A DNA stretch of 64,000 bases from contig JBGSPB010000015.1 of the NCBI GenBank assembly GCA_041738795.1, forward strand, positions 108,227-172,226. Direction: 5' to 3'. The notes under the pieces are model-generated. The model was not told where the DNA came from, ran no database searches, and worked only from the letters and a program-made list of their open reading frames with translations. The DNA is from Chitinophagaceae bacterium (GTDB lineage: Bacteria > Bacteroidota > Bacteroidia > Chitinophagales > Chitinophagaceae). The position numbers and the translations under genes are program-made. Below are positions 5,485-30,438 of the stretch, one piece after another (within the stretch, counting starts at the first letter, position 1; each line of letters starts with the position of its first letter).

Positions 5485-5487
5485 TTG

Positions 5488-11552: not shown

Positions 11553-12581
11553 TCACCAGACATTCCGCGGGCAATTATCCGGGTACCCACCAATAACAAA
11601 GCCCAGCAAAATTTCATGAGTTCCCTTACTGAAATTATTCAAGCGGGATGTGGTATAATCATAGGAATACCCAATATGAAAAATATTAGAGACATTCAGA
11701 CCCATCATGCCGGCATAGCCATCTTTATGCCTGTAACTTCCCCCGATCCATAACCTGTCGAGATACTGTAATTTAAGATTGCCCTCCACCTGTACCGGCA
11801 AAGGATCTACATATTTCACCATCAGGGATGGTATCAGGTTAAAATTATCGCCCAGCGAAAAGCGATACCCGGCAGTTCCAAAAAGATGGGGCACTGTTCT
11901 GCCTTCTTTTGGCCGGATATACCCATTGGAGAAATCAATTTTTTGTGGCACTACCTGCTGTGCAGAAACGCCAATAAAATAATCAGCAGAATACAGGTAC
12001 AAACCAGCCATCATATCCAGTCTTGTTTTGTTCAGGATACCTGAAGTAAACACAGCAGGATCGGCTATTACATCGCCAAAATCGAGTTTATCAGCATTGA
12101 GACTAATACGATTAAATCCGACCCCAAAACCTGCGGACAGGCTGGTACGGGCAGAAAGAGCCAGGTGATAAGCGTAAGTGCCATAAAGGGAAAAATTACT
12201 CAACGGGCCTGTAATATCATTGATCACCTGCAATCCGATGCCATGATGGGGTGCCGGTGCTGTATATTCTTCCCAGTATCTCTTACCACGGGGATTCTCC
12301 CCTTTCAAATCAAATGAAGTAGCTGTTTTGCGATAGTCTGATTTACCAATTGGTCCATGAACAGAAAGATAAGAGGTAATAGGTGCATCCTGGATACCTA
12401 CCCACTGGTGACGGTGGCTAACTTTCAAATCAGTATAATTCTCGATACCCGTCAATGCCGGGTTGACAATATACTGGTTAAGGATATATTGGGTGTAATG
12501 TGGTTTCTGCTGCGCTAAAACAGGCAATGTTGCCATACCACCCAACACAATCACTATCACAAGAAAAATATTTTTCTTCAT
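11553..12581 (-). CDS. PorP/SprF family T9SS outer-membrane beta-barrel protein
   Basis: QQKPHYTQY..NPALTG..HRHQWVGIQDAP..GYSYDYTTS..GTHEILLG pattern. Confidence 0.92.
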   Translation of the reverse strand: MKKNIFLVIVIVLGGMATLPVLAQQKPHYTQYILNQYIVNPALTGIENYTDLKVSHRHQWVGIQDAPITSYLSVHGPIGKSDYRKTATSFDLKGENPRGKRYWEEYTAPAPHHGIGLQVINDITGPLSNFSLYGTYAYHLALSARTSLSAGFGVGFNRISLNADKLDFGDVIADPAVFTSGILNKTRLDMMAGLYLYSADYFIGVSAQQVVPQKIDFSNGYIRPKEGRTVPHLFGTAGYRFSLGDNFNLIPSLMVKYVDPLPVQVEGNLKLQYLDRLWIGGSYRHKDGYAGMMGLNVSNIFHIGYSYDYTTSRLNNFSKGTHEILLGFVIGGYPDNCPRNVW

Positions 12582-12648
12582 TGCTGTTTCGCTTTCAGAT
12601 CAGTAAACGGATTTTAAAAACGGGGCCTATTCCTGCTATTGTTGGTTT

Positions 12649-14643
12649 TTACTCGTTCTTTAATACTTTGAATTCAGTTCTCCTGTTTTTCTCTCTTCCT
12701 TCAGGATTGTCTTTACCATCAACTTCATTTGGAGAAATCGGCATTGCTTCACCATATCCTTTTGCAACTAATCTTTCAACCGAAATTCCTTTTTCCACCA
12801 GGTATTTCACCACACTTTGTGCTCTTGCTTCAGACAATTTCATATTATAAGTGTCAGAACCTTTACTATCGGTATGTGCACCCAGTTCAATGGCCATATT
12901 TGGATATGTATTCAGCATTCGTACCACTTCATCCAATGCAGGATATGATTCCGGTTTCAGGTCAGCTTTGTTGAAATCATAATATACATTCTCTATAACA
13001 AATTTCTCATCTACTTTTGGCGCTTCTGGCACCAGGCAAAGATCAGGATACCTCATACTTTCTTCTTCCAGGTCAGCCGGTGTTCCAACATTGGCAGCAT
13101 TGCTTATAAACCCTTTGGCTTCGGCTTGTACTTTCAACGGCTGGTGATCTTCCATAGTAAAGGAATATGTACCGTCAGCTCCCACTTCCTTTGAATAAAT
13201 TGTTTTATTACTGGCTGGATCAACAATGGTTACAGTGGCACCACTCAGTGGTTTGGAAGGATCGCAGGAAAGCACACGGCCGCTCAGTTGCCTGAGTGGT
13301 CTTACTTTCTGTAATGCAAATAGCTCGAGACAGCACACTGCATCCCGGTCAGAGCTCAGCATTACATTTTCAAGTACATTTTTAGCAGATCCCCTGCTCA
13401 CCATGTAAATATCATCTTTCACTGAATTGACAGGATAGCCCATATTCACCGGCTCAGTCCAGTTACCGATATTTCCCTTACTGCGGAAGAAATCATATCC
13501 TCCCATTCCCACTCTACCGTTTGAAGAAAAGATCAGCGAAGCAGATGCTTCATGATAAGCAGGTGCCTGTTCATCATAGCTGGTATTGATAGCAGCACCC
13601 ATGTTGACCGGAGTACCGGTTGTTCCATTCTCCAATGGTGCATACCATAGATCATATCCCCCTTGTCCGCCTGTCCTGTTACTGGAGAATAAAAGATATT
13701 TGCCATCAGCTGTAACAAAAGGTTGCTGTGTATTAGCTCCGTTTGCATTGATCGATTCACCGAGTTTAACAGGCTCACTCCATCCATCATTGGTTTTACT
13801 GCTGGAATAGATGGCAGCTGATTTTTTATCACCGGAAATACCCCATTTGGTCAGGTACATGGTGTTGCCATCAGGCGTAACCGTTACCACTCCCTGTTGC
13901 ATCCCTTTTTCCTGGGGAATAGTAGCCAGGCTAATACTGGCAAGGGTCCCTGCATCGTAAACAGCCTGGTAAACACGATTGGTATATACCATCGTTTTGG
14001 CGGTAGTGTCCTGCGGCCTTGTTGAAGTAAATAACAATGTATTTGAATTCAGCCAGGCTGGTGCATAACTGGCGCCTTTTGCATTCAATTCTCCCCCTGC
14101 TTTATTAATAGTATAATACTTCAGGTCTTTTTTAACAAGCTCTGCCTGTATGAATTGCAGGTTCTTCAATTCTCTCTCTGCATTTTTCTTATACTCATCA
14201 TTTGCCGGATATCCTGATAAGAATGTTCTAAAATTTTGTTCCGCCTCCGCATATTTTCCCAAAGCCCTCAGCTGTGCCGCATAATGATATTGCGCCAGCG
14301 GGAATTGCTTTTTATTCGCCACCATCACTTCTTTATATTGAGGCTCAGCCTTGGATGGATAGTTGAGCAAACGATAACATTCTGCCAGGTTATACATTGC
14401 CTGCTCCTGGTTGACGGCAGCCGCAGCTGTTTTCTTAGATGAATTCTGGGGAGTGTAAGGTTTAAACTCTTTGTCTTTGCCGGTCTTATCACCACCCATA
14501 TATTTTTCATAGTATTCAGCAGCAGACGCATAGTCGCCTTTCTGAAAATAATCATCAGCAGCTTTCAGGTAATCATACACAAATTGTGCATGCAACGAAG
14601 CGAAAGAAAAAAGAACAGCCGTTAAAACAAATATTTTTTTCAT
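12649..14643 (-). CDS. PorE-like protein: TPR - PD40 propeller - carboxypeptidase-regulatory-like - OmpA_C peptidoglycan-binding domain
   Basis: N-terminal TPRs, PD40 repeats (LLFSSNRTGGQGGYDLW, FSSNGRVGMGGYD), OmpA_C VYYDFNK..HTDSKG..YNMKLSEARA..NRRTEF. Confidence 0.92.
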   Translation of the reverse strand: MKKIFVLTAVLFSFASLHAQFVYDYLKAADDYFQKGDYASAAEYYEKYMGGDKTGKDKEFKPYTPQNSSKKTAAAAVNQEQAMYNLAECYRLLNYPSKAEPQYKEVMVANKKQFPLAQYHYAAQLRALGKYAEAEQNFRTFLSGYPANDEYKKNAERELKNLQFIQAELVKKDLKYYTINKAGGELNAKGASYAPAWLNSNTLLFTSTRPQDTTAKTMVYTNRVYQAVYDAGTLASISLATIPQEKGMQQGVVTVTPDGNTMYLTKWGISGDKKSAAIYSSSKTNDGWSEPVKLGESINANGANTQQPFVTADGKYLLFSSNRTGGQGGYDLWYAPLENGTTGTPVNMGAAINTSYDEQAPAYHEASASLIFSSNGRVGMGGYDFFRSKGNIGNWTEPVNMGYPVNSVKDDIYMVSRGSAKNVLENVMLSSDRDAVCCLELFALQKVRPLRQLSGRVLSCDPSKPLSGATVTIVDPASNKTIYSKEVGADGTYSFTMEDHQPLKVQAEAKGFISNAANVGTPADLEEESMRYPDLCLVPEAPKVDEKFVIENVYYDFNKADLKPESYPALDEVVRMLNTYPNMAIELGAHTDSKGSDTYNMKLSEARAQSVVKYLVEKGISVERLVAKGYGEAMPISPNEVDGKDNPEGREKNRRTEFKVLKNE

Positions 14644-14681
14644 ACTAGTTGGTTGCAGTAATTAAAATTCGGTTTCAAATA

Positions 14682-15692
14682 TTATAATCTCGGACAAACA
14701 AATTCCACCTCCGGTGTTTTGGTTGATTTCTTTCCAATGATAGACAGGGAAATCTCAAAACTATTGGATCCATTCACCAGCTTTCCAAGATCTGAAGAGT
14801 TAATATCATAACTGGCACCCAGCATCATATTCTTATAGGTAAATCCAAAGAAAGGTGATATCGCATCTTCAAAACGATAGTTGGCGCCGATCAGCAGGTT
14901 AACCTCTGAAGTAGCTTTGTATTGCCCGTATGCACCTGCCATTTTTTCGGTTGCGGTACCCTGTGATAAATAAAGAAAATTAGGTGTGATGCTGAACCTG
15001 TCAGATAAAGTGAACCGTATACCTGCATGTGCAGTATATCGCATCGGAAATTTTTCATCTCCGCTGGCACTGAACTTATCTTCAGGTTTGGTGAGATGTG
15101 ATGCAGAAAAGCCTGCATACAGGTTTGCTTTCTTACCGGGTTGCGCATCAAAATATAAAACGCCTGCACCCATATCAAATGCGGTGGCTGAGGTTCTGTT
15201 GAGTACATCAGACGATGGATTGCCGGGATTATATCCAAAAACAGGATTCCATTGGTCTCCAAATGTCATCTTATTGCGGTCAAAACGACGTTGAATAATA
15301 CCGGCCTGCATACCAAATACCACACGGTGCTCTTCATTTTTTCCAAAACGAACACCTGTATAGGCAATGTTTCCATATGCCGTGGTATAACCATACCCTC
15401 CATCTCCTGCAGTTTGTTTCAAGACACTTACTCCCAGGTTGATCTTTTTTTCTGTTGTGAATTCAGCACTGGCTCCATACGTTGTAAACGGACTGGAAAT
15501 ATTACCCCACTGGTTGCGGTAAACACCGGAAACCCGGTACTGACCGTCAAAAGCACCTGTCAGTGCAGGATTAAGCCAGGACGGATACACATAGTACTGT
15601 GAGAAATGCGGATCAACCTGTGCATTTGCTTTACTAACTGCAAGGCCAATTGACAGCATTAACAATGAAATTCGTAAGCTCTTTCGCATCAC
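14682..15692 (-). CDS. PorP/SprF family T9SS outer-membrane beta-barrel protein
   Basis: QVDPHFSQYY..NPALTG..YRNQW..GASYDIN.S..SFEISL pattern. Confidence 0.92.
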   Translation of the reverse strand: MMRKSLRISLLMLSIGLAVSKANAQVDPHFSQYYVYPSWLNPALTGAFDGQYRVSGVYRNQWGNISSPFTTYGASAEFTTEKKINLGVSVLKQTAGDGGYGYTTAYGNIAYTGVRFGKNEEHRVVFGMQAGIIQRRFDRNKMTFGDQWNPVFGYNPGNPSSDVLNRTSATAFDMGAGVLYFDAQPGKKANLYAGFSASHLTKPEDKFSASGDEKFPMRYTAHAGIRFTLSDRFSITPNFLYLSQGTATEKMAGAYGQYKATSEVNLLIGANYRFEDAISPFFGFTYKNMMLGASYDINSSDLGKLVNGSNSFEISLSIIGKKSTKTPEVEFVCPRL

Positions 15693-15743
15693 ATTTAATT
15701 TTGGTTCATTAAAAAAATTTACTTCTGTTCAGTTACTGTATTA

Positions 15744-18700
15744 CTACCGGATGATCGTTACCGATCCGCTCAACGGCTTGAATCCATTTTGCAACTGAAT
15801 GATATAATAATAAGTGCCCGCAGGCAGTTCCTTTCCTTTATACGTACCATTCCACGGCGTGCCATAACCAGCAGAAAAATATACCTGCTGACCATACCGG
15901 TTAAATACTTCTACGGTACACCCCGGGTAATCACCAAGGTTGGGTATCATCCATTGGTCATGTATATTATCTCCATTGGGTGAGAATACATTCGGTACTT
16001 TAACCAGCTTCAGAATTTTCACTGTCATCTGATCTGTTGCCGTACAGCCAAAATCTCCCGTTGCGGTGAGTGTATACACCTGATCCTGGAGGGCTGTCAG
16101 TGTCGGGTTCAGTATTGTATTACTGCTTAAACCAAAACCAGGAGACCAGTTGAAAACCAGGTTAGATGAGTTTGCAGTGGCATTCAATTGCAATACAGTT
16201 CCCTGTGGCAGTACATACGACTGGCCCGCATCAATTACCGGCTGCAGGTGTACCGTAACCGGCAATACAAAAGGTTCTGAAACACAACCAACCGCATTCG
16301 TTACTGTTAGCCTTACATTATACACTCCCGGCGTATTGAAACGCTTGGTGGGGTTGCTTGCAGAAGATGTACCGCCATCAGCAAAGTTCCATGCCCATGA
16401 TTGTATGGTGCTGTTTGGTGCGGAACTGCCATCGGTGAACACATTATCTGCACCCTGGCAAAGCTCCTGTGGTGATACACTGAATGAAGCCTGTGGTTTA
16501 TCAAAGAAACTATTCATTGGTTTAGTAACCTGCTGCACACATCCGAAAGCAGAAGTCGATACTAATGTTACATTGTAATTACCAGATGCGGCGTATACAT
16601 GTGAAGGATTAGTGACTGTTGATGTATTACCATCACCAAAATTCCATACATGTGTTAAAGCAGAATTATCAGCTACCGCAGTAAGGTTAGTGAAAGCAGC
16701 AGTGCCACCCGGCATACAAATACCGGTTGGCACAGTAAAGTCTGCCACCGGCAACGGGCTTATCCGGATTGCTTGTGAAACAGGTTCACTAAAGCATCCC
16801 CTGTCACTCACTGTTACTAACTGCACATTGTACGTGTTGGCCGATGTATAGTTAAACGTAAATGGATTACCATTGGTATAAGAGGGTGTGTTGCCATCAC
16901 CGAGATTCCAGTTCCAGGTAGTGATGGTTCCGGATGGAACAGCAGATGTATTCGTGAATGTAACTGCCTGTCCCAGGCAAGCGCCGTTATTACCACTGGC
17001 AGTAAAGGAAGCTGTTGGCCTCGGGTAAACTTCAATTGTATTATTCACCGTGCCGGTACATCCGCCAGCAGTAGTAAAAGTATAGGTAATGGTATGTACA
17101 CCCGGGCCTGCCACATTGGGGTCAAACAACCCGGCAGCGTTTACTCCGGGACCACTGTATACACCGGTTCCTGTTACACCATTCGTTGCCGTTGCTGATG
17201 CAATGGAAGATGGGGCTGCACCCGGGTTCTGGCATACATTTGTCAATGCAGGGAATGATAATGCCGGTGTTACCGCAAAACTGGCTGTAATATTCGTATC
17301 CTTCACACATCCATTAGAAGAAGTTGCTTGTAAATTGATCGTATAGGTTCCTTCCAAATAGTTATGTGTTGGATTTTGTGCTGTTGATGTATTTGGATTA
17401 GCTCCACCTGCATTGGGATCATTAAAATTCCACAACCATGTCATGGTTTGCGCATCAGGTATGGTACTGGTGTTGGTGAATTGTACTTGTCCTGTCGTAG
17501 GCAAACAACCTGCAACAGGTAATGTAAAGCTGGTTCTCGGTCTTGCATGCACCTGTATGTTCTGTGTGGTTGTTTGTACACAACCACCCGTTGACGTGAA
17601 AGTATAAGTGATCGTATGTGTTCCAAACCCAGCGATAGCAGGATTGAACATACCGGCTGCATCTGTACCCGGACCACTATATACACCTGTACCTGCCACA
17701 CCATTTGTTACGTTGGCGGTAGCCACGGAAACAGCTGCTGCATTTTCACAAACTGCAGGTAATGCAGCATAAGAAAGTAATGGTGTTACAGCAAAACTGG
17801 TAGTGATATTTGTATCCTTCACACAACCGTTAGAGGAAGTTGCCAGTAAATTGATCGTATAGGTTCCTTCCAAATAGTTATGTGCCGGATTTTGTGCTGT
17901 TGATGTGTTTGGATTTCCTGGCGTCGCAATCGGATCACCGAAATTCCACAACCATGTCATAGTTTGTGCATCAGGAATAGTACTGCTGTTGGTAAACTGT
18001 ACCTGTCCGTTAGCAGGTAAACAACCACTTGCCGGGATTGTAAAGTTTGTTCTCGGTCTTGCATGCACCAGTATGGTTTGTGAAACAGAATCAATACAAC
18101 CGGCACCGGATGTAAGCTTGTACCAGATAGTATGTGTGCCATAGCCGGCTACTGCCGGTGTGAACAGACCTGCTGAAGTAGTACCCGGTCCCTCGTAAAT
18201 ACCTGTACCTGTTACACCATTTGTAACAGTTGCATTCGCAATAGAATAAGCTGGCGCATTTTCACAAACTGCATTCAGCAATGGATAAGTGAGAGCAGGT
18301 TTTAAATTAAAGGTGACTGTTTGTGTTGTATTCTCTGTACAGCCATTAGCAGTTGTCGCACTGAAATTGATCGTATAGGTTCCCTGCTGGTAATTATGTG
18401 TAGGGTTTTGCAGTACCGATGTGTTCGGATTACCGGGTGTTGCATTTGGATCACCAAAGTTCCAGGCATAGGTACTTATAGTTTGCCCATCAGGTGTTGT
18501 AGCAGTACCGGTAAACTGTACCAATCCTGCCGGAGACAAACAACCGGCTGCATCATTGGTAAACGAGACTGCAGGTTTGGCATAAACGGTCACTACCCTG
18601 CTCACCGTATCACTTACACAACTGGCGCTGGAACGAGCCACATGTTTAATTGTATAAGTACCATATGCGGGATAAGTGTAGGTTATAGATGGACCATTTG

Positions 18701-20873
18701 TAACAACCTGCGTAACACCATTACCAAAATCCCAGTACCATTCATTTACAGCTATTGCTGCGGAGGATGTATCTGTAATAGTAAACTGGCTGCCTTCGCA
18801 TAAATTAGCAGGAGTTACCATAAAATCACCCGGTGGTTTATCATAAATCGTAATACGTTTCATGGTATCACTGGCACAACCTTCATTGGAAACAACAGAT
18901 AAGTTAATATCATGAACACCTGGTGGTAATATCCTGATTACGTTTTGTCCTGTAGCTGTAGCAGGGCCCGGAAAAGTCCAGTTATAGTCACGAATAGTAT
19001 AACCGTTACTGGTGGACGTCACACCAGAAAAGTTAACAGGATCCAAGGTACACCCGGTATGACTAAACGTAAAGTCAGCCAGTGGCCTTGGTTTAACAAT
19101 CACCGGTATGGATAAACTATCTCTTCCATAACAGTTTTCTATACTGGGATGATAACCATTAAGAGGAATATCAAAAGTATCAGCTGCAGCAAATAAATAA
19201 GTGCCCGGTAATGTGTATTTATAATAAGGTACCCCATTTACATACACCGTACCAGTTGATACGGGTGCATTATCAATCACATCTGTATTGGGAGTAATAT
19301 TCGTACCAAGCAAACTCAATCTCCAGTCGATCCGTGTTGGCTGGTAAGCCATCAAAACGGAAAGTTTGATAGGCGTACCGGTACAGGTATAAGGGTGTTC
19401 CGGAACACCCGGGTCCGGTGTATTTTGAATAGATGGTAATGCACTAAGATTATTAATTAATGTACCGGCATTATACCCATAGCTTTCTACTGAACCCAAC
19501 CCATAAGTAATAGCTGTAAATGCAGAATCACTGTAGGCAATTGCCTGTGCTTGTGCAGATGTCCATCTTTTTACCACAATGGTATAGCCAGCTGCCTGCG
19601 GATGCGGATAACTATGGTCAAAAACAGCACTGCCATCAATACGAAGAGAGGGTAATCCGTTATTAGGAATAATTAAAGTAAGATAATTCACCTGTATCGC
19701 TTCCCTTGTATTACGGTAAAATCCGATTCTTTTTATCCCTTGTTCCACCGGACTTATATATATCATTTCCGGGTCACCTACTCCACCACCCATACAACCA
19801 CCACCTGTCATATATTGCGCCACCATTACTGGTTTATCTGCATCGATCACATCGGCAGAATTACTCTCAAAAAAGTAAAAACTATTTTGTTGTAAAGTAC
19901 CTGCAGGTAATACCACACCATTTCTTCTTACAACAGTGGTTGGGTCTTTTACCAATATCTTATATGAATTGGTCATGAACTGGTTGGCAGCAGTTGACCT
20001 GGACGTTGGAGCTGTGAGGTATCTTTTTCCCCATGCCTGTGTAGGGAAACATTGCTGGTTGTCATTATCCCCGCCACCACTACCACAACTGATTGGATTA
20101 GACGTACGGCTGCTGCCGGAAAACACAGCTATTGGGTAACAATCTCCTACTGCATTAGCAATTGATTTGAATTTTGTACCCGACACTTCCGATTTGGTTG
20201 ACGCACCTTCCGGACCGCCTATGATTTGATAAATCTGCCCTTTGTTTAATGTAACGGTAAACGGAACACCCGGAAGTTTATTCAGCCTGGTAGTAACCGA
20301 AGGAATTATTTCAACAACCGTATTATCGTGTGTAGCCAGGACATATGCCCAGGAAAAACAATTGGGCTGATAGGTTTGCCTGCTGTTCAAAGAAATGTAT
20401 GCATACCCGTAAGTTTCTACTGGCATCAGCATGGTGGCCCCGGAAGAAGTAGAACCGAATGTGTGAGCATAGGCTACAATCGGCACATTACTTTCAATAT
20501 GAATGGACATATTAAAAATTCCTTCTCCCCCATTTCCGCCAAAAGTTGGAGGAACATCATATAAACGGCAATCTAAAGCACCTGCCTTAGGCATATAGTT
20601 TGAAGGGATAACGGAACCAGCCGGCACCACATAGTTGGTTACCTGTGTTGCTGTTCTTCCCCTGACCGTCACCGTTACATTGGCAGCCTGCTCCGCACTA
20701 AAATACAAAACCATTTCCTGGCTATTATTCTGACCAGGCTCCATGAACTGGTGGTGTCCATAGCCCACCCAGAATTCCCTGCCGCGGTTGGAGAGATTTT
20801 GCTGTGCAAAACCCTCCAACGAGGCGGTGAATAAGAGGCATACAGTGAATAATATAAATGTTGTCCTTTTCAT
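15744..20873 (-). CDS. T9SS type-B-CTD cargo: IgGFc-binding-protein N-terminal-like domain plus multiple PKD domains
   Basis: Signal peptide, GREFWVGYGHH..DPEMIYISPVEQ..ESYGYNAG, repeated W.WNFGD PKD motifs, C-terminal VPNVFSPNGD..VFNRYG..WNGT..GTYYY..GSVTIIR. Confidence 0.88.
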   Translation of the reverse strand: MKRTTFILFTVCLLFTASLEGFAQQNLSNRGREFWVGYGHHQFMEPGQNNSQEMVLYFSAEQAANVTVTVRGRTATQVTNYVVPAGSVIPSNYMPKAGALDCRLYDVPPTFGGNGGEGIFNMSIHIESNVPIVAYAHTFGSTSSGATMLMPVETYGYAYISLNSRQTYQPNCFSWAYVLATHDNTVVEIIPSVTTRLNKLPGVPFTVTLNKGQIYQIIGGPEGASTKSEVSGTKFKSIANAVGDCYPIAVFSGSSRTSNPISCGSGGGDNDNQQCFPTQAWGKRYLTAPTSRSTAANQFMTNSYKILVKDPTTVVRRNGVVLPAGTLQQNSFYFFESNSADVIDADKPVMVAQYMTGGGCMGGGVGDPEMIYISPVEQGIKRIGFYRNTREAIQVNYLTLIIPNNGLPSLRIDGSAVFDHSYPHPQAAGYTIVVKRWTSAQAQAIAYSDSAFTAITYGLGSVESYGYNAGTLINNLSALPSIQNTPDPGVPEHPYTCTGTPIKLSVLMAYQPTRIDWRLSLLGTNITPNTDVIDNAPVSTGTVYVNGVPYYKYTLPGTYLFAAADTFDIPLNGYHPSIENCYGRDSLSIPVIVKPRPLADFTFSHTGCTLDPVNFSGVTSTSNGYTIRDYNWTFPGPATATGQNVIRILPPGVHDINLSVVSNEGCASDTMKRITIYDKPPGDFMVTPANLCEGSQFTITDTSSAAIAVNEWYWDFGNGVTQVVTNGPSITYTYPAYGTYTIKHVARSSASCVSDTVSRVVTVYAKPAVSFTNDAAGCLSPAGLVQFTGTATTPDGQTISTYAWNFGDPNATPGNPNTSVLQNPTHNYQQGTYTINFSATTANGCTENTTQTVTFNLKPALTYPLLNAVCENAPAYSIANATVTNGVTGTGIYEGPGTTSAGLFTPAVAGYGTHTIWYKLTSGAGCIDSVSQTILVHARPRTNFTIPASGCLPANGQVQFTNSSTIPDAQTMTWLWNFGDPIATPGNPNTSTAQNPAHNYLEGTYTINLLATSSNGCVKDTNITTSFAVTPLLSYAALPAVCENAAAVSVATANVTNGVAGTGVYSGPGTDAAGMFNPAIAGFGTHTITYTFTSTGGCVQTTTQNIQVHARPRTSFTLPVAGCLPTTGQVQFTNTSTIPDAQTMTWLWNFNDPNAGGANPNTSTAQNPTHNYLEGTYTINLQATSSNGCVKDTNITASFAVTPALSFPALTNVCQNPGAAPSSIASATATNGVTGTGVYSGPGVNAAGLFDPNVAGPGVHTITYTFTTAGGCTGTVNNTIEVYPRPTASFTASGNNGACLGQAVTFTNTSAVPSGTITTWNWNLGDGNTPSYTNGNPFTFNYTSANTYNVQLVTVSDRGCFSEPVSQAIRISPLPVADFTVPTGICMPGGTAAFTNLTAVADNSALTHVWNFGDGNTSTVTNPSHVYAASGNYNVTLVSTSAFGCVQQVTKPMNSFFDKPQASFSVSPQELCQGADNVFTDGSSAPNSTIQSWAWNFADGGTSSASNPTKRFNTPGVYNVRLTVTNAVGCVSEPFVLPVTVHLQPVIDAGQSYVLPQGTVLQLNATANSSNLVFNWSPGFGLSSNTILNPTLTALQDQVYTLTATGDFGCTATDQMTVKILKLVKVPNVFSPNGDNIHDQWMIPNLGDYPGCTVEVFNRYGQQVYFSAGYGTPWNGTYKGKELPAGTYYYIIQLQNGFKPLSGSVTIIR
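17025..18585 (-). repeat. Three intragenic 516-bp (172-aa) tandem units
   Basis: Anchor TCGTATAGGT occurs at 17339, 17855 and 18371; units 2 and 3 are near-identical in protein (TIPDAQTMTWLWNF..NTSTAQNP.HNYLEGTYTINL). Boundaries approximate. Confidence 0.85.
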
Positions 20874-20900
20874 TTTTTCGAGGTACGTTGATCTTTTATT

Positions 20901-23900
20901 TTATCTCACCAGGTTGATCGATCCTTTGCGCTGTATCCTTTCACCAGTGTTCAGGACAATATCGCATACATAGATATACACTCCAGATGGTTGTGGTTTC
21001 CCTTTATGGGTACCATCCCATGCCACCGACTGGCTGTTTGATTCAAAAATCTTCTCGCCCCACTGGTTGAACACTACAAACTTCATACTGCGGATCACAT
21101 TACTATACACCCGCAGCACATCATTCAGCCCGTCATTATTTGGGGTAAAGCTGTTCGGAATATAGACCTGGTCTGTTACTGTTTGTCCTGTAGCAGGCTG
21201 TGAGACCGCCGGTAAGCAACCACCCACTGCCCTCACCAGGAGTGTAACAGAAGTTCCCAGAGGCAGACCTGTTATTGTATGCGTCAACCCCTGTGGACCA
21301 GATGATGGTGTTGACCATGTACCACCGGCATTAGTAGATACCTGGTAACTGGCAGCACCTGTAACGGCTGTCCACCTGAATACTATTGTATTGGTGCTTA
21401 CAGAATCTACAGTTACAACAGGTGCCGGTAATGTTGGCAATATAGCAGCAGTGGCCCTGTCACGGGTAGCACTGGCGCAACCCAGTCTTATCACTTCGAG
21501 GTATACATTCACAAAACCGGTAACATTATTCAAAACAAAAGTTGATCCTGTTCCCAGTAATGAACCCCCGGTTGCGGCGCTATACCAATTGTAGGTATCA
21601 CCCGTTACAGGGTTTTGTACCGTAAAGGTGGCGCTGGCGTTATTACATACATACACGGTATCCTGCGTGATGGCACCTGTTGGTTTTGGATTCACCACAA
21701 CAGGTTTGGTTGTATCGCCGATACAACCGTCATCAGCAATACCTCTCAGTGATACATTGTATGTTCCTGCTGTTGCATAGGTATGAACCGGGTTCTGACC
21801 GGCACCATTGTTACCATCACCAAATGCCCATGTCCATTGATTGGTCGGTACACCATTGCTCGTTGTTGTTGTAGCATTGAATTGAACTGCATCACCCACA
21901 CAACCGCTAAAATTGGTAGTGAAATTGGAAACTGGTGCTGCAATTACTGTTACCGGTAGTGATATCTCAACTGAACCACCGCAACCTTCGATACTTGGAT
22001 GGAATACAGTGATCGGTACATTATAAGTGCCTACCTGGCTGAAAGTATACTGCTGTGCCAGCGTATAGATATAAAACTTCTTACCGTTCACTGTAACTGA
22101 GTCAGTGGGCACAGGGTTCACTTGTGTTACATTGGCATTTGGCGTTACATTATTCACCTGGCTCAGTTGCCATACCAGTTGTGTTGGTTTTACAGAGATC
22201 TGCAGGCTCAGGCGGAATGGTGTTCCTTTACAGGTATAAGTGTTAGTACCACTTGTATTAAACACATTATTGAACGATGGAACAGCGCTGAGGTTTTTCA
22301 CCAGTGTACCGGCGTTATAACCATAGCTCTCCACGCTACCCAATCCGTATGTAATCGCAGTAAATGCAGAGTCACAGGTAATATAATGCTGAGCTGCTGC
22401 TCCGGCAAAGTTTTGTCTTACACAAGTATAACCTGCCAGGTTTGGATGCGCAAACACATCTGTAAATGTAGTGCTGCCATCTATCTGCAAGCTTGGTAAT
22501 GCAGCAGTCGGTAATATAACATTCACATAATTTGAAGTGATCGAATTATTGTTGGTGTTATAGAACCTTGCTTTTTTGATACCCTGCTCTATCGGGCTGA
22601 TATAGATCATTTCAGGATCGCCATTACCAGTTGGCGCAGGAACACCGGCACAACCGGTTCCACTGGTAGACAGCATATACTGTGCTACCATTACCGGCTG
22701 GTCAGCCTCAATATAGCTGGCTGTGTTAGCACCGGTATTATTTCCTACAAAGAACTCATAATAATTACCCGGTACAATCAAAGTGGCTGGATCCAATGTT
22801 ACTCCATTTCTTTTTACCACTGTAGCCGGATCTTTCACCATCACTCTCCATCCATTGGAATTGTAATTGGTATTGGAAGCAGAATTGGCGGTGGCAAAAG
22901 TCAGGTACTTGGTTCCCCATGCGCTGGCCGGGAATACCTGTTGTATCATATTATCACCATTGGTTGTATTACAGATAGCCGTACGGCTGCTGCCGGAGAA
23001 CACTGCTATCGGGTAACATTTGCCACTGGCATTTGGAATTGATTTGATAGTCGAACCGGAAAGATCCGTTCCCTGTCCACCGCTGGCTTGTGTACCCATT
23101 ACGTTATACACTTCTCCTCTCTTCAGGTATACCTGGAATGGTACACCGGCAGGACGTCCGCCTTTTGTTGTTACAGCAGGAGTAATCTCTACCAAAGTAC
23201 TATCCCTGTCAGCAATCACAAACATCCAGGAGTATGAACCTGCACCGCCGCTTGGATAATACTGGCGGGAGTTCAATGATCTGTACTCATAACCATATAC
23301 ACCGGTTGGCAACAACATACCTGCACCGGAGTTGGCTCCGTCACTGATATGTGCATACGCAACAATAGGCACATCACTTTCAATACTGATACCTTTATTG
23401 AAAAGTCCTTCATCCGTTAATCTTGCATCCACCAGTCCTGAAGTTGGCATAAAGTCACTCACTCTTACTGTATTCGCAGGGATAGCATATGTACGTACCC
23501 AGTTCGTTCCGTTTACTTTCACAGTAACGTTGGCTGAATCTTCTGCACTCAGGTAAAGTGCCATGTCCTGTGAGTTGCTGCTGAATCCATAGTGGTGGCC
23601 ATAACCCACCCAGAAGCGTTTACCCCTGTTAGAAGTATCCAGTGTAAACACAGGAGGTACGGCTGGTGGAGGTGCTACGCCATCTGTCATGCCGGTAAAT
23701 TTATCAAGGAAGCTGAGATTACTTTCTGTGATCACATTACCCAGGTCATCTACCACACTTCCGGATGCAACCAACCAGGTGCCTGCTGTATTAGTGCGGC
23801 CCAATTTTACAGTTGGTTCTGATGGTATATCTCTCATCCATGGATCTATATAGAATTGCCGGTTTGTGAAATTGGTTGGTGCACTTCCGGTGAAATCCAC

Positions 23901-26900
23901 ATCTGTATAATAATACATGGACTGCTGACCAGTAGTTAATCCCGGAGGAATGATACCTGAGTATCTTCTCACATCCACTGTAGTTGGAACAGTAGATGCA
24001 GGCGCCCATGTTATTTTCTGAACTGTATCTGTACCAAACATAAATACCTGTGTGGTACCTGCAGCTGGAACAGCAGGTGTGGCAGGCAATACAGGCGGCT
24101 GTGCAGTTGGCAGGAACTCATAAGCTCCCATATCAGGAACACCTTCCGTCAAAGTTGTAGGTCTTGTATTACCATTAATGTCTGTTGCATTATCAGTTAT
24201 CTGTACACCACGGCCATGCATAGCCCATACATCAGGATTAGTGATATCAGGTTGTAATTCATTACCCGCTGCAAAGGCAGGAGTGTATACAATAGAATTA
24301 TAATCCCAGTTCTGGCCATTCTTCCAATCCTGTAACGTAGCATAGTTTACTGTATTCTGCCTGATCAATGTTGCACCAGCAGTATAGAACATATTGAAGT
24401 CGGTGTAAATATTTGCTACGTTCAAATAATTAGCCGCTATTCCATTGGCAGTATGCGAGAAGATATTGTTTCTGATATCTCCTACTCCGGCAGATGAAGT
24501 AGTATGACTTATATATGCTGCGATATTTGTAGTACCAGCAGCAGGAGATGCATTCTGTACAGAATTATTATAATATTTTATGCCATTGCCACCTGTAGAA
24601 TACAGACCGTAAGCTGTAGTAGCACTGGTGTTGATATTAATAACGTTATTCTTTGTATAGTTACCAATTGAAGAAGTCTGGTATAAACCATACAATGTTC
24701 CTGTTATCCCTGTAAGTCCTGTTATTTTATTACCAGACACACTTCCGGTATGACCGGCGGCACCACATCCCGTAAGATAAATACCATATGTAGTTGAAGT
24801 GGTCCCGTTGATATCAACCTTATTATTATTTACCTGGTAAGCTGAGTCGGCATTGGTCAGGTAAATACCATAAGTAGTGGTATTTCTTGGAGCAGCAACT
24901 GTAACGGTATTCTTGCTCACAGATGTAAACCGTGTATTTGAATTATAAATACCATAATAATATGAACCAGTCACCGTATTACTATCTATAAAGTTGTAAG
25001 CACTTGGCGAAGTAGTGGTAGAACCGAAATAGATACCTGTCACACCACCATTCACTGTATTGCCTTTGATGGTATGATCACCTCCGGCAAGATTAGCCGC
25101 ATGAATACCCACCACTGTTGTACCAGTACCGGTAGCGGTTGGTACATTAATGATATTATTTACCAAACTGTCATTGGATGCTAAATTGGCAATATCCACT
25201 GCCCTTCCGTTGGTGGCATTGATTGCAGTGATCGTCATATTCCGGTAAGTGATATAGCTGGCACTATCTAACTGTAATACATAGTTAGCTGCTGCATTGG
25301 TCGCATCAAAAGTCAGGATAACAGAAGCAGGATTACCATTAGCACTCTGGAAAGTAACACGGCTTGTATTAGAAGCGCCGGTGATCCGGTGCATTCTCAC
25401 CTGCTCGGTATAAGTACCCGCTGCTACATTGAAAGTAACAGGCCCTGAGATTCCGCAATCCATTACGGCTACAGCCTCAACAAATGAATTGAAGTTGCTG
25501 CCTCCAGGGTAATCGGTTGGTATGGTATTATTGATTGTATATACACCAGCCGGGAAAGGAGGATTCATATTTACCTGCACCGGAGTTGAGTTAGCTGATT
25601 GTGCACTACAGGTAACCACGCAACGATACCAGAAACTGCCGCTGGCAAGAATTGTTGTATCCGGGAACAGCTTTGGATTACCCAGGTTAGTATACGGCCC
25701 TGCAGCAGCTGTGGCAAATTGCCATTGGTAACTTTGACCAGAGCCAATTGAGTTGCCACTTAAGTCAAGGTCAATCGGGGTACCCAAACAAATACCGGTA
25801 TTCGGCACAGCTGTTGCTGAACCGGCTGTCGGAGGTGCTGTACAAACTGGTACTGCAAATTCCCATGCACCAATATCCGGTGTGGTAGCATTACGCACTG
25901 CATCACGGATATCTGAAGTAATTCCGGTTACTGGGGTCCCTTCATTATCCAATGCAGGTGTTCTTGGTTCCAGGTTTCCGGCAGCGGCATCCGTATAATA
26001 TGGATTAGCCGATACTGAATTACCATCTTGTGTGGTAGCAGCCTGCCAGTTAGCCAATGTTGTCTGGTTAGAGCCATTAAAGCCAACATGTGAATTAACT
26101 GCATTCCTGAATACTCCGTTATAATCAGATGTAAATGTAGTAGCTGCCGTGGCAAAATACATACAGTATTTATCACCATTACCGCCTCTTGTCATACTAA
26201 AGAGGTTATTCTTCAGATCAATACCGGCAGCGGCTGTCGTTTGATAGAAACAATAAGCGTCGCTGGTGGTAGTGGCGGTAGCATCATCCAGGTTCACTGT
26301 ATTATAATAATAGAATACATTATCTGAACTGGTGTTGTAGATACCATACTGGGTACCATTACCATTCATATTGTAGATCGCATTATTGCTGACAATATTC
26401 TCCAGGCCCGCAATCGCATCTACGCCGGTGAAATAAATTCCATAAGAAGTACTCGTCGCAGTGGGTGCGCCATCAAACAGGTTGTGTATCCTGTTCTTGT
26501 ATAATTTAACCCCGGTATTCAGTGATGTGACATAGATACCATAAGTAGTAGTGGAAGTTGTCCTGGCAGGCCGGAATATATTGTTCTTCTCAACCAGTGT
26601 ATTAAAATTGCCTGATAAATAAATACCATAGGCATAAAAATCTTTAATGGTATTTCTCACCATCGCATTATTACCAACAGCTGAAGTGGTACTTCCCACT
26701 GAAGTGATACCATAATAGCCACCGGTGATCTCGTTATTTTCAAACAAGTTGTAATCCGACAGATTAGTACCGGTTGTTGTGGCAGTTGTACCCACACTGG
26801 AAACTATACCAGCAAAATTAGTAGACGTGGTAGTGGTGCTCATACTGATATCGCAATTGCGGATAATGTTGGAATCAGCACTATTCAGCAAATGGAATCC

Positions 26901-29849
26901 AAAACCATACTCTGTAGTAGCAGCGCCCTGCGGCACCACCGTTAAACTATCAAATACAAAATGATCAGTTCCGTTCAGTTTTATGACAGCTCTTTCATTC
27001 GTATTCGTTGAAAGATTAGTGATAGTCTCACCATTTCCGTTGAAAGTAACAGTATTGGTAGCAGAAGAGCCTTGAATCTGCCCGATGATGACTTGTTCAT
27101 TATAAGGACCAGATCCGGTTACAACATTAAATACAATAGGACCACCAATTCCGCAACGCAAAGCGAAAACAGCATCATTGAAACTCTGGAAGTTGGTACC
27201 ACCTGTTGGTAATGCACTATTGATAGTATAAGTTCCGGCTGGGAACAATGAATTTACCACTACCTGTACAGGGGTAGAGAAAGTGGTTGATCCGCTACAG
27301 GTAACCGCACAACGGTAATATAAAGTAACCGTTGGGTTGACACTATAGGCCGGATTATTCTGCGAAGGCCCAATATTTGTCCATGGACCAGCCAGCGTTG
27401 TGGCTGTTTGCCATTGATAGGTTTGACCGGTTCCAAAAGTATTATTTACAAGACCCAGTGCAACCAGTTCATTAGGACAGATCGGTACACTGATACTTGC
27501 AGTGGCACCACCGGCATTTGGAGGCGCTGTACAACCGCCCACATCAAATTCCCAGGCCCCGATATCGGGAGTAGTAGCACTTCTTGACACGCCGAGAATA
27601 TCAGCCGTAATACCAACTGCTGAACCCAGGTCATTCATTCCGGCAGACGTTGGTTTCAGATTTCCTAAACCAAGGTTGGTATAGGCAGGATCTATGAAGG
27701 CTGAATTCGCATCCTGTGAAGAAGCAGTTTGCCAGTTGGCCAGAGTTGCCTGCCCGGTTGTACCCCATGAACCATAAAAAACGTTAGCAGCCGGGGTAAA
27801 AAATACGTTGTTGTTATTCGAAACAATAGTGGAAGTGGTAGTATTAAAAAACAGACCATGCATCTGGCCGGTTCCTCCCCTGCGCAAAGTGATAAGGTTA
27901 TTTTTAAATTCTATTCCTGCTGCCGCAGTTGTCTGATAAAAACCACGGGTTACTTCGGTGGTGGTACTCGCCACGTCATCCAGTGAAATAGTGTTATGGT
28001 AGTAGAATATATTATCTGAACTGGCATTATAAATTCCATAGATAGTACCATTACTCTTTATGTCATAGATAGCATTGTTGCTAACGATATTCTCCAGACC
28101 TGCGATAGCATCCACCCCGGTAAAATAAATACCGTACACATCATTCGTACTGGCCGTATTCACATCCAGCAAACCATGAATATAATTTCCATTGACTCTT
28201 GCACTGGTGCTGAGTGAGGTGAAATAAATAGCATAAGAAGTTCCAGTACTAATATTGGCACGGGCCGGGCGACTAAAATCATTAGCTTCTATCAAAGAAG
28301 TGAAGGTACCACTGGTATAAATTCCATACAGGTAATAATCTTTAATGATATTCCGGATAAACTTATTGCGCTGGTTAGCCACCGTAGTGCTGCCCACATT
28401 GGTAATTCCGTAATAACCTCCGGTAATGGTATTTAACTCAAACAGGTTATCGTCACACTCAGCATTGCCGGTACCGGTGGCTGAGGTGGCGCTGGCACTG
28501 ATGGAGATACCTACATGATTAGTAGAAGTCTGTGCATCAGTTACATTAATTATACATTTTCTTATAATGTTGGAATCGGCGTTGTTCAATAACTGAACAG
28601 CAAAACCGTATTCTGTAGTTGTGGTAGCTGTAGCATTAATAGTAAGGCTGTCAAAAATAAAATGATCTGCCCCGTTAAGCTTGATAACACCTCTTTCATT
28701 GGTGTTGGTCGAAGTGAATTGCAATACTCTGCCATTACCATTAAATGTTACCGTATTGATCACTGATGCTCCCGGAACCGGGTTAATAATAAGTTGTTCT
28801 GTATACGGACCCGAAGCTGGATCCACATTAAATACTACCGGCCCGTTTATACCACATGATATATAATTATATGCGGCATTAAAAGACTGGAAGTTGGTAC
28901 CGCCTGTTGGTAATGCACTGTTGATAGTGAAAGTTCCTGAAACCGCCGCAGGAGTAACTACCTGGAGGCTTCCTGAATTGACAGTATTGGCTCCGCAGGT
29001 AACCGCACACCTGTAATAATTAGAGGATGTCTGAGAAGTGGTATAAAAAGCACTTGTTGCTCCGGTGATATCGGTCCAGGTAGTATTATCTGGTGAAATT
29101 TGCCATTGATACGTCTGGCCTGTGCCTCCTGTACCTCCTACAAGGTTCAGATTAAAGTTGGTATTCAAACAAACCGGGTTTTGACTTGCAGTAACGGTTC
29201 CGGTAACCGGTGGGTCTGTACAAGGACCTGCAGGTGAGAAAGTAATTGCGCCTGTAAAATATCGAGGAGTAAGTGTAAGTGCAGTTCCAGATCCACCATA
29301 ACCTACATTTTGTCCTGCAATCTGCACATCTCCCAATTTAAGATTCACACCACCACCTGTAAATGTATTAGGTGCTATAGCAGTTCCAGTACCCGAGTAT
29401 CTTGTGCTACCAGGTCCTGTATTACGTAATGCAAAGCGGTATTGGGTGCCGGCAGGTATGGTAAAGCCCAAACCGGGGAAGTTAAGCGGAGTGATACCGG
29501 AAGCTGCTACCGGTGTAGCTAATGAAGTTGCTGCCAAAGTCCAGGGGGCGGCAGTTACATCCGTTGCTGTACCCGACAATGCACTGGCAGTATAATACAA
29601 CTGCCATATCGAATTATTTTCTGTAGTGGTACACCAATTTGAAATGGCGGTAAGTAATACCGGGAATCCGTTGGTATTTTCTATTACAAAACTCACCTGT
29701 GCAGGTGAACCCAGTGAATTCCCGCCATTATAAGGAGGGTTGGGCAATGTAGTAAGTGTTGTTTGCCCGTTCAGGCGACCAACAGAAAATAACAGCGCAA
29801 AAAACAAAAGGAGCATAGCGTTAAATCCTGAAGCGTAGTACTTTCTCAT
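20901..29849 (-). CDS. Giant (~2980 aa) T9SS type-B-CTD cargo: three Ig/beta-helix units, IgGFc-binding-like domain, PKD, FN3-like domain
   Basis: Likely start MRKYYASG at 29849, which gives a proper signal peptide (ORF track starts at 29882). Parallel beta-helix GIY..N.I repeats, GKRFWVGYGHH domain, C-terminal YIPNSFTPNNDGLND..VFNQWG..WDGT..GSINLVR. Confidence 0.88.
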   Translation of the reverse strand: MRKYYASGFNAMLLLFFALLFSVGRLNGQTTLTTLPNPPYNGGNSLGSPAQVSFVIENTNGFPVLLTAISNWCTTTENNSIWQLYYTASALSGTATDVTAAPWTLAATSLATPVAASGITPLNFPGLGFTIPAGTQYRFALRNTGPGSTRYSGTGTAIAPNTFTGGGVNLKLGDVQIAGQNVGYGGSGTALTLTPRYFTGAITFSPAGPCTDPPVTGTVTASQNPVCLNTNFNLNLVGGTGGTGQTYQWQISPDNTTWTDITGATSAFYTTSQTSSNYYRCAVTCGANTVNSGSLQVVTPAAVSGTFTINSALPTGGTNFQSFNAAYNYISCGINGPVVFNVDPASGPYTEQLIINPVPGASVINTVTFNGNGRVLQFTSTNTNERGVIKLNGADHFIFDSLTINATATTTTEYGFAVQLLNNADSNIIRKCIINVTDAQTSTNHVGISISASATSATGTGNAECDDNLFELNTITGGYYGITNVGSTTVANQRNKFIRNIIKDYYLYGIYTSGTFTSLIEANDFSRPARANISTGTSYAIYFTSLSTSARVNGNYIHGLLDVNTASTNDVYGIYFTGVDAIAGLENIVSNNAIYDIKSNGTIYGIYNASSDNIFYYHNTISLDDVASTTTEVTRGFYQTTAAAGIEFKNNLITLRRGGTGQMHGLFFNTTTSTIVSNNNNVFFTPAANVFYGSWGTTGQATLANWQTASSQDANSAFIDPAYTNLGLGNLKPTSAGMNDLGSAVGITADILGVSRSATTPDIGAWEFDVGGCTAPPNAGGATASISVPICPNELVALGLVNNTFGTGQTYQWQTATTLAGPWTNIGPSQNNPAYSVNPTVTLYYRCAVTCSGSTTFSTPVQVVVNSLFPAGTYTINSALPTGGTNFQSFNDAVFALRCGIGGPIVFNVVTGSGPYNEQVIIGQIQGSSATNTVTFNGNGETITNLSTNTNERAVIKLNGTDHFVFDSLTVVPQGAATTEYGFGFHLLNSADSNIIRNCDISMSTTTTSTNFAGIVSSVGTTATTTGTNLSDYNLFENNEITGGYYGITSVGSTTSAVGNNAMVRNTIKDFYAYGIYLSGNFNTLVEKNNIFRPARTTSTTTYGIYVTSLNTGVKLYKNRIHNLFDGAPTATSTSYGIYFTGVDAIAGLENIVSNNAIYNMNGNGTQYGIYNTSSDNVFYYYNTVNLDDATATTTSDAYCFYQTTAAAGIDLKNNLFSMTRGGNGDKYCMYFATAATTFTSDYNGVFRNAVNSHVGFNGSNQTTLANWQAATTQDGNSVSANPYYTDAAAGNLEPRTPALDNEGTPVTGITSDIRDAVRNATTPDIGAWEFAVPVCTAPPTAGSATAVPNTGICLGTPIDLDLSGNSIGSGQSYQWQFATAAAGPYTNLGNPKLFPDTTILASGSFWYRCVVTCSAQSANSTPVQVNMNPPFPAGVYTINNTIPTDYPGGSNFNSFVEAVAVMDCGISGPVTFNVAAGTYTEQVRMHRITGASNTSRVTFQSANGNPASVILTFDATNAAANYVLQLDSASYITYRNMTITAINATNGRAVDIANLASNDSLVNNIINVPTATGTGTTVVGIHAANLAGGDHTIKGNTVNGGVTGIYFGSTTTSPSAYNFIDSNTVTGSYYYGIYNSNTRFTSVSKNTVTVAAPRNTTTYGIYLTNADSAYQVNNNKVDINGTTSTTYGIYLTGCGAAGHTGSVSGNKITGLTGITGTLYGLYQTSSIGNYTKNNVININTSATTAYGLYSTGGNGIKYYNNSVQNASPAAGTTNIAAYISHTTSSAGVGDIRNNIFSHTANGIAANYLNVANIYTDFNMFYTAGATLIRQNTVNYATLQDWKNGQNWDYNSIVYTPAFAAGNELQPDITNPDVWAMHGRGVQITDNATDINGNTRPTTLTEGVPDMGAYEFLPTAQPPVLPATPAVPAAGTTQVFMFGTDTVQKITWAPASTVPTTVDVRRYSGIIPPGLTTGQQSMYYYTDVDFTGSAPTNFTNRQFYIDPWMRDIPSEPTVKLGRTNTAGTWLVASGSVVDDLGNVITESNLSFLDKFTGMTDGVAPPPAVPPVFTLDTSNRGKRFWVGYGHHYGFSSNSQDMALYLSAEDSANVTVKVNGTNWVRTYAIPANTVRVSDFMPTSGLVDARLTDEGLFNKGISIESDVPIVAYAHISDGANSGAGMLLPTGVYGYEYRSLNSRQYYPSGGAGSYSWMFVIADRDSTLVEITPAVTTKGGRPAGVPFQVYLKRGEVYNVMGTQASGGQGTDLSGSTIKSIPNASGKCYPIAVFSGSSRTAICNTTNGDNMIQQVFPASAWGTKYLTFATANSASNTNYNSNGWRVMVKDPATVVKRNGVTLDPATLIVPGNYYEFFVGNNTGANTASYIEADQPVMVAQYMLSTSGTGCAGVPAPTGNGDPEMIYISPIEQGIKKARFYNTNNNSITSNYVNVILPTAALPSLQIDGSTTFTDVFAHPNLAGYTCVRQNFAGAAAQHYITCDSAFTAITYGLGSVESYGYNAGTLVKNLSAVPSFNNVFNTSGTNTYTCKGTPFRLSLQISVKPTQLVWQLSQVNNVTPNANVTQVNPVPTDSVTVNGKKFYIYTLAQQYTFSQVGTYNVPITVFHPSIEGCGGSVEISLPVTVIAAPVSNFTTNFSGCVGDAVQFNATTTTSNGVPTNQWTWAFGDGNNGAGQNPVHTYATAGTYNVSLRGIADDGCIGDTTKPVVVNPKPTGAITQDTVYVCNNASATFTVQNPVTGDTYNWYSAATGGSLLGTGSTFVLNNVTGFVNVYLEVIRLGCASATRDRATAAILPTLPAPVVTVDSVSTNTIVFRWTAVTGAASYQVSTNAGGTWSTPSSGPQGLTHTITGLPLGTSVTLLVRAVGGCLPAVSQPATGQTVTDQVYIPNSFTPNNDGLNDVLRVYSNVIRSMKFVVFNQWGEKIFESNSQSVAWDGTHKGKPQPSGVYIYVCDIVLNTGERIQRKGSINLVR
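24110..29222 (-). repeat. Three ~563-aa intragenic units (C-T-x-P-P Ig-like domain plus right-handed beta-helix)
   Basis: CTDPP/CTAPP/CTAPP cysteine codons end at 29222, 27533 and 25844 (1689-bp steps). Units end PDIGAWEF, PDIGAWEF, PDMGAYEF. Near-identical ~45-bp DNA at 27186 and 28887. Confidence 0.8.
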
Positions 29850-30437: not shown

Positions 30438-30438
30438 G

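Follow-up and report, generated by a model that had tools for sequence, protein, structure and literature searches.

The window analysed here is a stretch of 64,000 nucleotides (nt) from a Chitinophagaceae bacterium (contig JBGSPB010000015.1 of assembly GCA_041738795.1). It contains a run of five genes coding for two very large type IX secretion system (T9SS) cargo proteins, here called cargo1 and cargo2, two shuttles of the PorP/SprF family, PorP_a (Pa) and PorP_b (Pb), and one PorE-like protein. The reading which we find rather probable is that this run is an accessory T9SS module which provides two giant surface proteins along with dedicated handlers, cargo1 belonging with Pa and the PorE-like protein and cargo2 with Pb. 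The likely cognate genes would then be interleaved and non-adjacent, as judged from the sequence classes of the cargos and of the shuttles.

The five genes

All five open reading frames (ORFs) are on the minus strand, in the order cargo1 (20901-29849), cargo2 (15744-20873), Pa (14682-15689 or 14682-15692), the PorE-like gene (12649-14643) and Pb (11553-12581), and the gaps between them are, in the same order, 27, 51-54, 38 and 67 nt. The initial annotation had described this order on one strand with gaps of 27-67 bp, and all five ORFs were recovered at the same coordinates and with the same gaps. Cargo1 has 2982 amino acids (aa) counted from the ATG at 29849, a longer frame starting with TTG reaching 29882, and cargo2 has 1709 aa. 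Both begin with an N-terminal Sec signal peptide (MRKYYASGFNAMLLLFFALLFSVGRLNGQ in cargo1 and MKRTTFILFTVCLLFTASLEGFAQ in cargo2, read by eye from the translations), and both have the type-B sorting domain TIGR04131 at the very end of the chain, with 47.0 bits for cargo1 and 70.5 bits for cargo2 (cut-off 35), the match ending at the last residues. They also match PF13585 (CHU_C) with 61.7 and 83.4 bits. The description of the two as giant type-B cargos therefore stands.

The final 100 aa of each cargo were taken as its C-terminal domain (CTD): CTD1 (20904-21203, minus strand; class C1), which is a singleton among the 20 type-B CTDs of this genome, and CTD2 (15747-16046, minus strand; class C2). 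They are 31% identical to each other. Pa and Pb, which are only 26% identical, both pass the curated cut-off of the PorP/SprF family (TIGR03519 / PF11751) over the full length, with 204.7 and 270.2 bits against TIGR03519 (cut-off 90.55) and about 290 of the 292 profile positions covered in each case. Shuttles of Flavobacterium johnsoniae work with foreign CTDs of 68% identity and fail with those of 43% or 26% (PMC12618676). Compared with these limits of cross-reaction the low identities between the two CTDs and between the two PorPs make two shuttles the expected number at this locus.

Which shuttle serves which cargo

Profiles for the classes Pa, Pb, C1 and C2 were built from 22 complete operons and scored on 120 PorP loci (60 other genera) and on the present genome. 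Outside recognised operons this gave 88 adjacent CTD-PorP pairs. Here a Pa-class PorP follows a C1-class CTD 35 times and a C2-class CTD nine times, and a Pb-class PorP follows a C2-class CTD 41 times and a C1-class CTD three times (Fisher p = 1.6e-12, not corrected for phylogeny). All nine Pa/C2 exceptions score as orthologues of the Pa of this operon and have a PorE-like gene after them, and the seven which were fetched again at 20 kb turned out to be this very operon, initially unrecognised through short flanks.

The simpler loci show the same association. Nine of the 20-kb loci are plain triads of a C1 cargo, Pa and a PorE-like gene with neither a C2 cargo nor Pb, and the C2/Pb type is found as a plain cargo-PorP pair without a PorE-like gene at 20 loci. 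The present genome holds a further locus of this type (C19:980265-991984, minus strand), in which a Pb-class PorP stands between two C2-class IgGFc cargos of 1782 and 1737 aa, with no PorE-like gene; this PorP is 55% identical to Pb, and its two neighbouring cargos have CTDs with 56-57% identity to CTD2. Two Pa-like PorPs on contig C3 each follow a C1-like cargo. One rearranged locus, L183, has the order C2 cargo, C1 cargo, Pa, PorE-like, C2 cargo, Pb, so that the C1 cargo is directly before Pa and a C2 cargo directly before Pb.

The presence and absence of the classes was then compared across 61 genus representatives of Chitinophagaceae, with a PorP counted as Pb-strong at E <= 1e-50 to Pb and a CTD as C2-class at 100 bits or more to CTD2. 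Pb-strong PorPs occur in 27 of the 61 genomes; the identical 27 also have C2-class CTDs, which the remaining 34 all lack. A Pa-strong PorP was seen in 16 genomes. Five of these have no Pb-strong PorP, and no C2-class CTD either, while all 16 genomes with Pb-strong and no Pa-strong PorP do have a C2-class CTD. C2 thus tracks Pb and not Pa.

Pairing by gene order would make Pa the shuttle of cargo2 and leave cargo1 to Pb, or to Pa as well. This follows the rule used for F. johnsoniae, where two type-B substrates have their cognate shuttle encoded directly downstream and 9 of 12 type-B genes adjoin an sprF-like gene (PMC12618676), and the adjacency of cargo2 and Pa is kept in every orthologous operon. 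However, C2-class CTDs are found in the 16 genomes just mentioned which lack a Pa-strong PorP, and never without a Pb-strong one; every Pa-strong gene with a single upstream cargo has a C1-class cargo there; the basal Pa lineages are triads of C1, Pa and PorE; and CTD2 is much closer to the CTDs which adjoin a Pb-class PorP (56-57%) than to CTD1 (31%). We therefore regard pairing by gene order as decidedly improbable.

The trailing Pb gene is not present in all operons of this type. It is missing from three metagenome-assembled genome (MAG) loci in the scan with the PorE-like protein described below and from six of the ten operon-type loci in the sample of 61 genomes. If cargo2 depends on a Pb-class shuttle, such genomes should have a Pb-class gene elsewhere. 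This was found in seven of seven genomes with a Pb-less operon (the three MAGs, which have exactly one Pb-strong gene each, and the genomes G013, G019, G024 and G028), and in each of them another C2-class cargo immediately precedes the Pb-strong gene. There are often more C2-class cargos than Pb-class PorPs, with ratios of 8:1 in G024, 7:1 in G019 and 3:2 in the present genome, so that one Pb probably serves several cargos, as Fjoh_1677 does in F. johnsoniae.

The same observations could be explained if Pa had broadened its specificity after the insertion of cargo2, so that both cargos are handled by it and, by way of the PorE-like protein, tethered, with Pb being partly redundant here and serving mainly C2 cargos elsewhere, such as the pair on C19. 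The missing Pb in 3 of 30 related operons and in the six of ten, the excess of C2-class cargos and the documented crosstalk of shuttles would all agree with this. But no genome was seen in which cargo2 occurs with Pa alone, since the seven checked genomes with a Pb-less operon all have a Pb-strong gene, and an identity of 31% between the CTDs lies below the known range of crosstalk. A broadened Pa seems quite improbable to us.

We thus keep to the pairs cargo1-Pa and cargo2-Pb. Pb is not strictly private to cargo2, being outnumbered by C2-class cargos in many genomes and missing in cis from several operons, and is probably a class-level shuttle which acts partly in trans. The initial annotation proposed one PorP per cargo. 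This is supported by the two CTD classes and two PorP classes, with the non-adjacent assignment; the pairing by gene order which that proposal implied is disfavoured by the comparative evidence.

Conservation and history of the operon

A scan with the PorE-like protein gave 55 loci, of which about 30 read C1 cargo, C2 cargo, Pa, PorE-like, down to 50% identity of the PorE-like protein, and 27 of these have the trailing Pb. The carriers include Chitinophaga pinensis, C. japonensis, C. ginsengisegetis, C. niastensis and others, Ferruginibacter, and MAGs from sludge and soil; the closest record, at 98% identity, is a Chitinophagaceae MAG from activated sludge. Among the 61 genus representatives six genera have the four-gene core, and three of these six have the trailing Pb as well. 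This recurrence of the gene order is far beyond chance, and the earlier suggestion of a dedicated cargo/shuttle unit is borne out by its conservation in about 30 loci of Chitinophagaceae. The sampled Chitinophagaceae genome G028 has 20 PorP genes, and the operon occurs in it seven times or more, as copies or variants (L183-L189, for example): two full five-gene versions, three four-gene versions, one with two C2 cargos, and the rearranged L183.

The Pa-strong genes form a clade (n = 53, support 0.994) in a tree built from 201 PorPs. The plain C1-Pa-PorE triads are its basal grade, and every Pa gene that has a C2 cargo immediately upstream of it falls into one derived clade (n = 42, support 0.962). 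For the trailing Pb genes there are at least three positions in the tree, each nested among the genes of plain C2-Pb pairs. Because the operon-type Pa genes are a single derived clade above the basal triads, the simplest reading of the tree is that cargo2 was inserted once between cargo1 and Pa of an ancestral triad, and that a C2-cargo/Pb module was merged in.

Transcription and neighbouring genes

The five-gene run is downstream of dnaA (30672-32105) and a gene for tRNA-Ser (30438-30529). Between the latter and cargo1 there is a leader of 588 nt (29850-30437, minus strand) with two motifs of the Bacteroidota -7 type, TAnnTTTG, starting at 30247 and 30169, and this is the probable single promoter region. 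The motif scan found no TAnnTTTG in the four internal gaps, and an intrinsic-terminator scan found no terminator-like hairpin in them; the combined scan for sigma-70 promoters and intrinsic terminators gave match counts no higher than the shuffled expectation and was used solely for the absence of hairpins from the gaps. Together with the synteny this suggests a single transcript, and the five genes are probably transcribed as one operon.

A candidate sixth gene (10118-11425, minus strand) begins 127 nt downstream of Pb, with no TAnnTTTG in the gap. It codes for a protein of 435 aa (HEFGHAIGLLHE), a secreted HExxH zinc metalloprotease of astacin/matrixin-like type by its Pfam matches, those to Astacin and Matrixin being weak. 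It lies outside the conserved core: an ORF of 433-437 aa on the same strand follows Pb in the closest relatives only (L002, L004, L005, L006, L022 and L028) and not in Chitinophaga, and it may be a lineage-specific sixth gene of the operon. Positions 1-9968 of the window are an integrative conjugative element which ends about 150 nt from the metalloprotease gene; it has a gene for tRNA-Pro (9894-9968) and, after it, genes for an integrase, a DUF1016 nuclease, a HamA/helicase pair and a T4 coupling protein.

The cargo proteins

Cargo1 consists of the signal peptide, a head of about 200 aa, three repeats of about 570 aa each made up of an immunoglobulin-like (Ig) domain and a right-handed beta-helix, an IgGFc_binding-like module, PKD, Ig_7 and the CTD. 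The repeats (aa 208-780, 771-1343 and 1336-1912; the second and third being 55% and 32% identical to the first) are annotated as beta-helix / choice-of-anchor Q by Pfam and NCBIfam. Pfam has no match in the first 550 aa, and a PDB sequence search with cargo1 returned PKD and Fn3-like domains only. The head (residues 1-207, window 29229-29849, minus strand) is likewise without a Pfam match; in nine orthologous cargo1 genes nothing corresponding to aa 1-200 could be detected, and the Ig domain directly after the head is conserved. The head looks like a tip which can be swapped or which evolves fast. Cargo2 is simpler, with the signal peptide followed by an IgGFc_binding-like (PF17517) module, about eight PKD domains and the CTD.

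The PF17517 module of about 600 aa is the sole link found between the two cargos, which are 45% identical in it over 704 aligned positions. An AlphaFold2 (AF2) model of the module, from an alignment of 43 sequences, is all-beta with a predicted local distance difference test (pLDDT) score of 87.8 and a predicted template-modelling (pTM) score of 0.83. A Foldseek search of the model against PDB gave generic beta-sandwich arrays only, namely MG domains of alpha2-macroglobulin/complement and Ig domains of LILR, at TM scores of 0.16 or below. Six cargos with a PF17517 module are encoded at three loci of this genome.

The types of domain and the variable head would fit giant adhesins. Alternatively, the cargos could in the main be enzymes, secreted or on the surface, such as beta-helix proteins acting on glycans, and Pa, Pb and the PorE-like protein would only display them. 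The right-handed beta-helix fold is also found in polysaccharide lyases, and cargo1 has three beta-helix / choice-of-anchor Q repeats; in close relatives, moreover, a secreted metalloprotease is encoded after the operon. But Pfam, NCBIfam and the PDB sequence search gave no catalytic family in the cargos, finding PKD, Ig, beta-helix and IgGFc_binding only, and the head varies between orthologues as it does in adhesins, so that we consider enzymes unlikely. The earlier idea of a two-subunit adhesin or filament is conjectural, and its filament part is unsupported.

The PorE-like protein

The PorE-like protein of 664 aa has a TPR domain (aa 25-151), a PD40 beta-propeller (300-333), a CarboxypepD_reg domain (452-517) and an OmpA domain (554-643; PF00691, 75.7 bits). 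PMC12773672 gives this set, TPR, beta-propeller, CRD and OmpA_C, as the architecture of PorE. The best PDB match with an OmpA-family name is to the chains of 6TOP (2e-25), in the OmpA_C domain, and the OmpA_C motif GAHTD...LSEARA (GAHTDSKGSDTYNMKLSEARA) is present. The domain is therefore predicted to bind peptidoglycan and the protein is a putative peptidoglycan tether. With the NCBI PorE model NF052230 (T9SS_PorE) it scores 321.3 bits, below the cut-off of 600, and with the CHU_0125 family 336.6 bits, below the cut-off of 620. The initial annotation called the gene PorE; the four-domain architecture agrees with that name and the score under the curated cut-off does not. For this reason, and because it is one of two paralogues in the genome, we use the name PorE-like.

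The gene is closely linked to Pa, with which it shares the strand at a gap of 38 nt, and a PorE-like gene is downstream of 53 of 53 Pa-strong genes sampled. A vicinal Cys-Cys pair (437-438) of the PorE-like protein is invariant in 22 of 22 orthologues, and 18 of the 22 also have Cys460 and Cys536. A disulfide link between PorP and PorE was considered and discarded: the C-terminal Cys of PorP, in a CPR motif, does not track the PorE-like gene, as it occurs in most PorP classes whether or not such a gene adjoins and is missing in one class that has it.

The T9SS in the rest of the genome

The core of the secretion system is encoded on another contig, with the SprA translocon at C6:634277-641398 (2409 bits) and the motor protein GldM at C6:332621-334093 (321 bits). 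The run of five genes had been described as a self-contained T9SS module, and this has to be given up. Since SprA and GldM are encoded elsewhere, and since the whole genome has seven PorP genes and 20 type-B CTD proteins, we see the module as an accessory set of cargos, shuttles and anchor which relies on the core T9SS.

The second PorE-like paralogue (C6:654732-656651, minus strand, 639 aa) scores 295 and 321 bits with the PorE and CHU_0125 models, which is under both cut-offs. It is located 13 kb from sprA with no adjoining PorP, next to a gene which is dprA-like by sequence inspection, and it is possibly the housekeeping PorE. An ORF of 368 aa between this gene and a type-B cargo was examined as a hidden PorP and rejected, as its sequence reads as DprA-like. 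A PorP gene at C15:77266-78324 is an orphan which neither a cargo nor a PorE gene adjoins, and seven orphan CTDs (on C6, C9, C5 and C19) form one cluster of 40-50% identity. Together they look like the case of Fjoh_1677, with one shuttle for several orphans.

A model for the module

In the model all five products would be exported by Sec, and Pa and Pb would insert into the outer membrane. Both cargos would cross this membrane through the SprA translocon, powered by GldLM, these parts being encoded elsewhere. Each type-B CTD would be caught by its cognate PorP/SprF-type barrel, which would remain bound and hold the cargo on the surface. The PorE-like protein would bind peptidoglycan through OmpA_C and also bind Pa, by analogy with the PorE-PorP-PG1035 complex of Porphyromonas gingivalis, and cargo1 would leave SprA on Pa to end in a static complex tethered to the cell wall, by analogy with Fjoh_3952/3951/3950. 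Cargo2 would leave on Pb, and may be held by the membrane only, be mobile, or be docked to the same PorE-like protein. The operon itself would be a fusion of two older modules, a triad of C1 cargo, Pa and PorE-like and a pair of C2 cargo and Pb without PorE, and Pb-class shuttles could serve several C2-class cargos, also in trans.

A more far-reaching version is that the five proteins make up one heteromeric structure, in which the single PorE-like protein binds both Pa and Pb and the cargos are joined through their modules of about 600 aa. We find this doubtful. If true, a C2 cargo which is normally carried by an untethered Pb would be docked beside a wall-anchored C1 cargo, the structure would be the first multi-cargo type-B assembly, and both the code between CTD and shuttle and the signal for a static or mobile fate could be dissected in one operon.

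Several points weigh against the model. Neither the pair statistics nor the co-occurrence statistics are corrected for phylogeny, and the class thresholds, the 100-bit line for C2-class CTDs among them, were drawn post hoc, after the score distributions had been seen; at the looser E <= 1e-22 there are weak C2-like matches without a Pb-strong PorP in two more genomes, G004 (a fragment of 63 aa) and G011 (83.6 bits). The node uniting the Pb-strong clade of the PorP tree has a weak support of 0.44, though the clade is pure. A mirror-tree test on the 22 complete operons, in which CTD distances were compared with PorP distances by partial correlation with PorE as the control, did not discriminate between the pairings: the values were 0.33 for C1-Pa against 0.31 for C1-Pb and 0.17 for C2-Pb against 0.03 for C2-Pa, differences which point towards cargo1-Pa and cargo2-Pb and are too small to count. 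Of the 53 Pa-strong genes, 41 keep the adjacency of cargo2 and Pa, and the adjacency rule of the literature would pair cargo2 with Pa. For co-transcription the argument consists of synteny and the absence of motifs, and for adhesin function of the domain types, the shared module having no specific fold match.

Work on type-B cargos assigns shuttles by adjacency, and asks how the specificity between CTD and shuttle and the static or mobile destination are encoded. The operon is a useful natural test case, present in culturable Chitinophaga, in which adjacency and sequence class disagree and in which CTDs of two classes, shuttles of two classes and a single PorE-like tether would be expressed side by side. 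By the class rule a C2-class CTD would need a Pb-class PorP encoded at some place in the same genome, and C1 cargos would belong with Pa and a PorE-like protein. The predictions of this rule are simple and can be falsified, and it could help to assign orphan type-B cargos, of which the 20 cargos and seven PorPs of this genome are an example. As the module probably specifies two of the largest surface proteins of the organism, it may have an effect on attachment and on floc or biofilm behaviour in activated sludge.

Comparison with known systems

The kind of system is already published, as Fjoh_3952-3950 and as PG1035-PorP-PorE, and the new point is the pairing. The operon Fjoh_3952/3951/3950 of F. 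johnsoniae likewise combines, on a single strand, a type-B cargo with a dedicated shuttle of the PorP/SprF family and an OmpA protein of PorE-like type. It is given as one of five such operons in PMC12618676, which cites Kulkarni et al. (2019), and Fjoh_3951 and Fjoh_3950 have been suggested to hold Fjoh_3952 in a static, wall-anchored complex (PMC12618676). In contrast, the operon described here has two cargos with CTDs of 31% identity and two shuttles of 26% identity with one PorE-like gene in common, and its presumed cognate genes are interleaved, as judged by sequence comparison.

In P. gingivalis a cross-linked complex of PorE, PorP and PG1035 has been found (Gorasia et al., 2022, PMC9143113). 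The three protein roles are the same, and the PorE-like protein has the same layout of TPR, WD40/PD40, CRD and OmpA_C. The difference is that P. gingivalis has a single PorP and a single PorE as parts of the core T9SS, whereas the PorE-like protein of the operon is a dedicated accessory copy.

The cargo2/Pb part is closer to two other cases. SprB and SprF of F. johnsoniae, where SprF binds SprB (PMC9143113), are a type-B cargo and a shuttle without a PorE-like partner which are mobile on the gliding track. By gene layout the cargo2/Pb module elsewhere is alike, a cargo-PorP pair without a PorE-like gene, but in this operon Pb is directly after the PorE-like gene. Fjoh_1677 is a single orphan shuttle which serves three type-B CTDs, likewise orphans, that share >44% identity (Paillat et al., 2025, PMC12618676), and judged by gene counts and phyletic patterns one Pb-class shuttle apparently serves several C2-class cargos in the same way, including cargos encoded at other loci.

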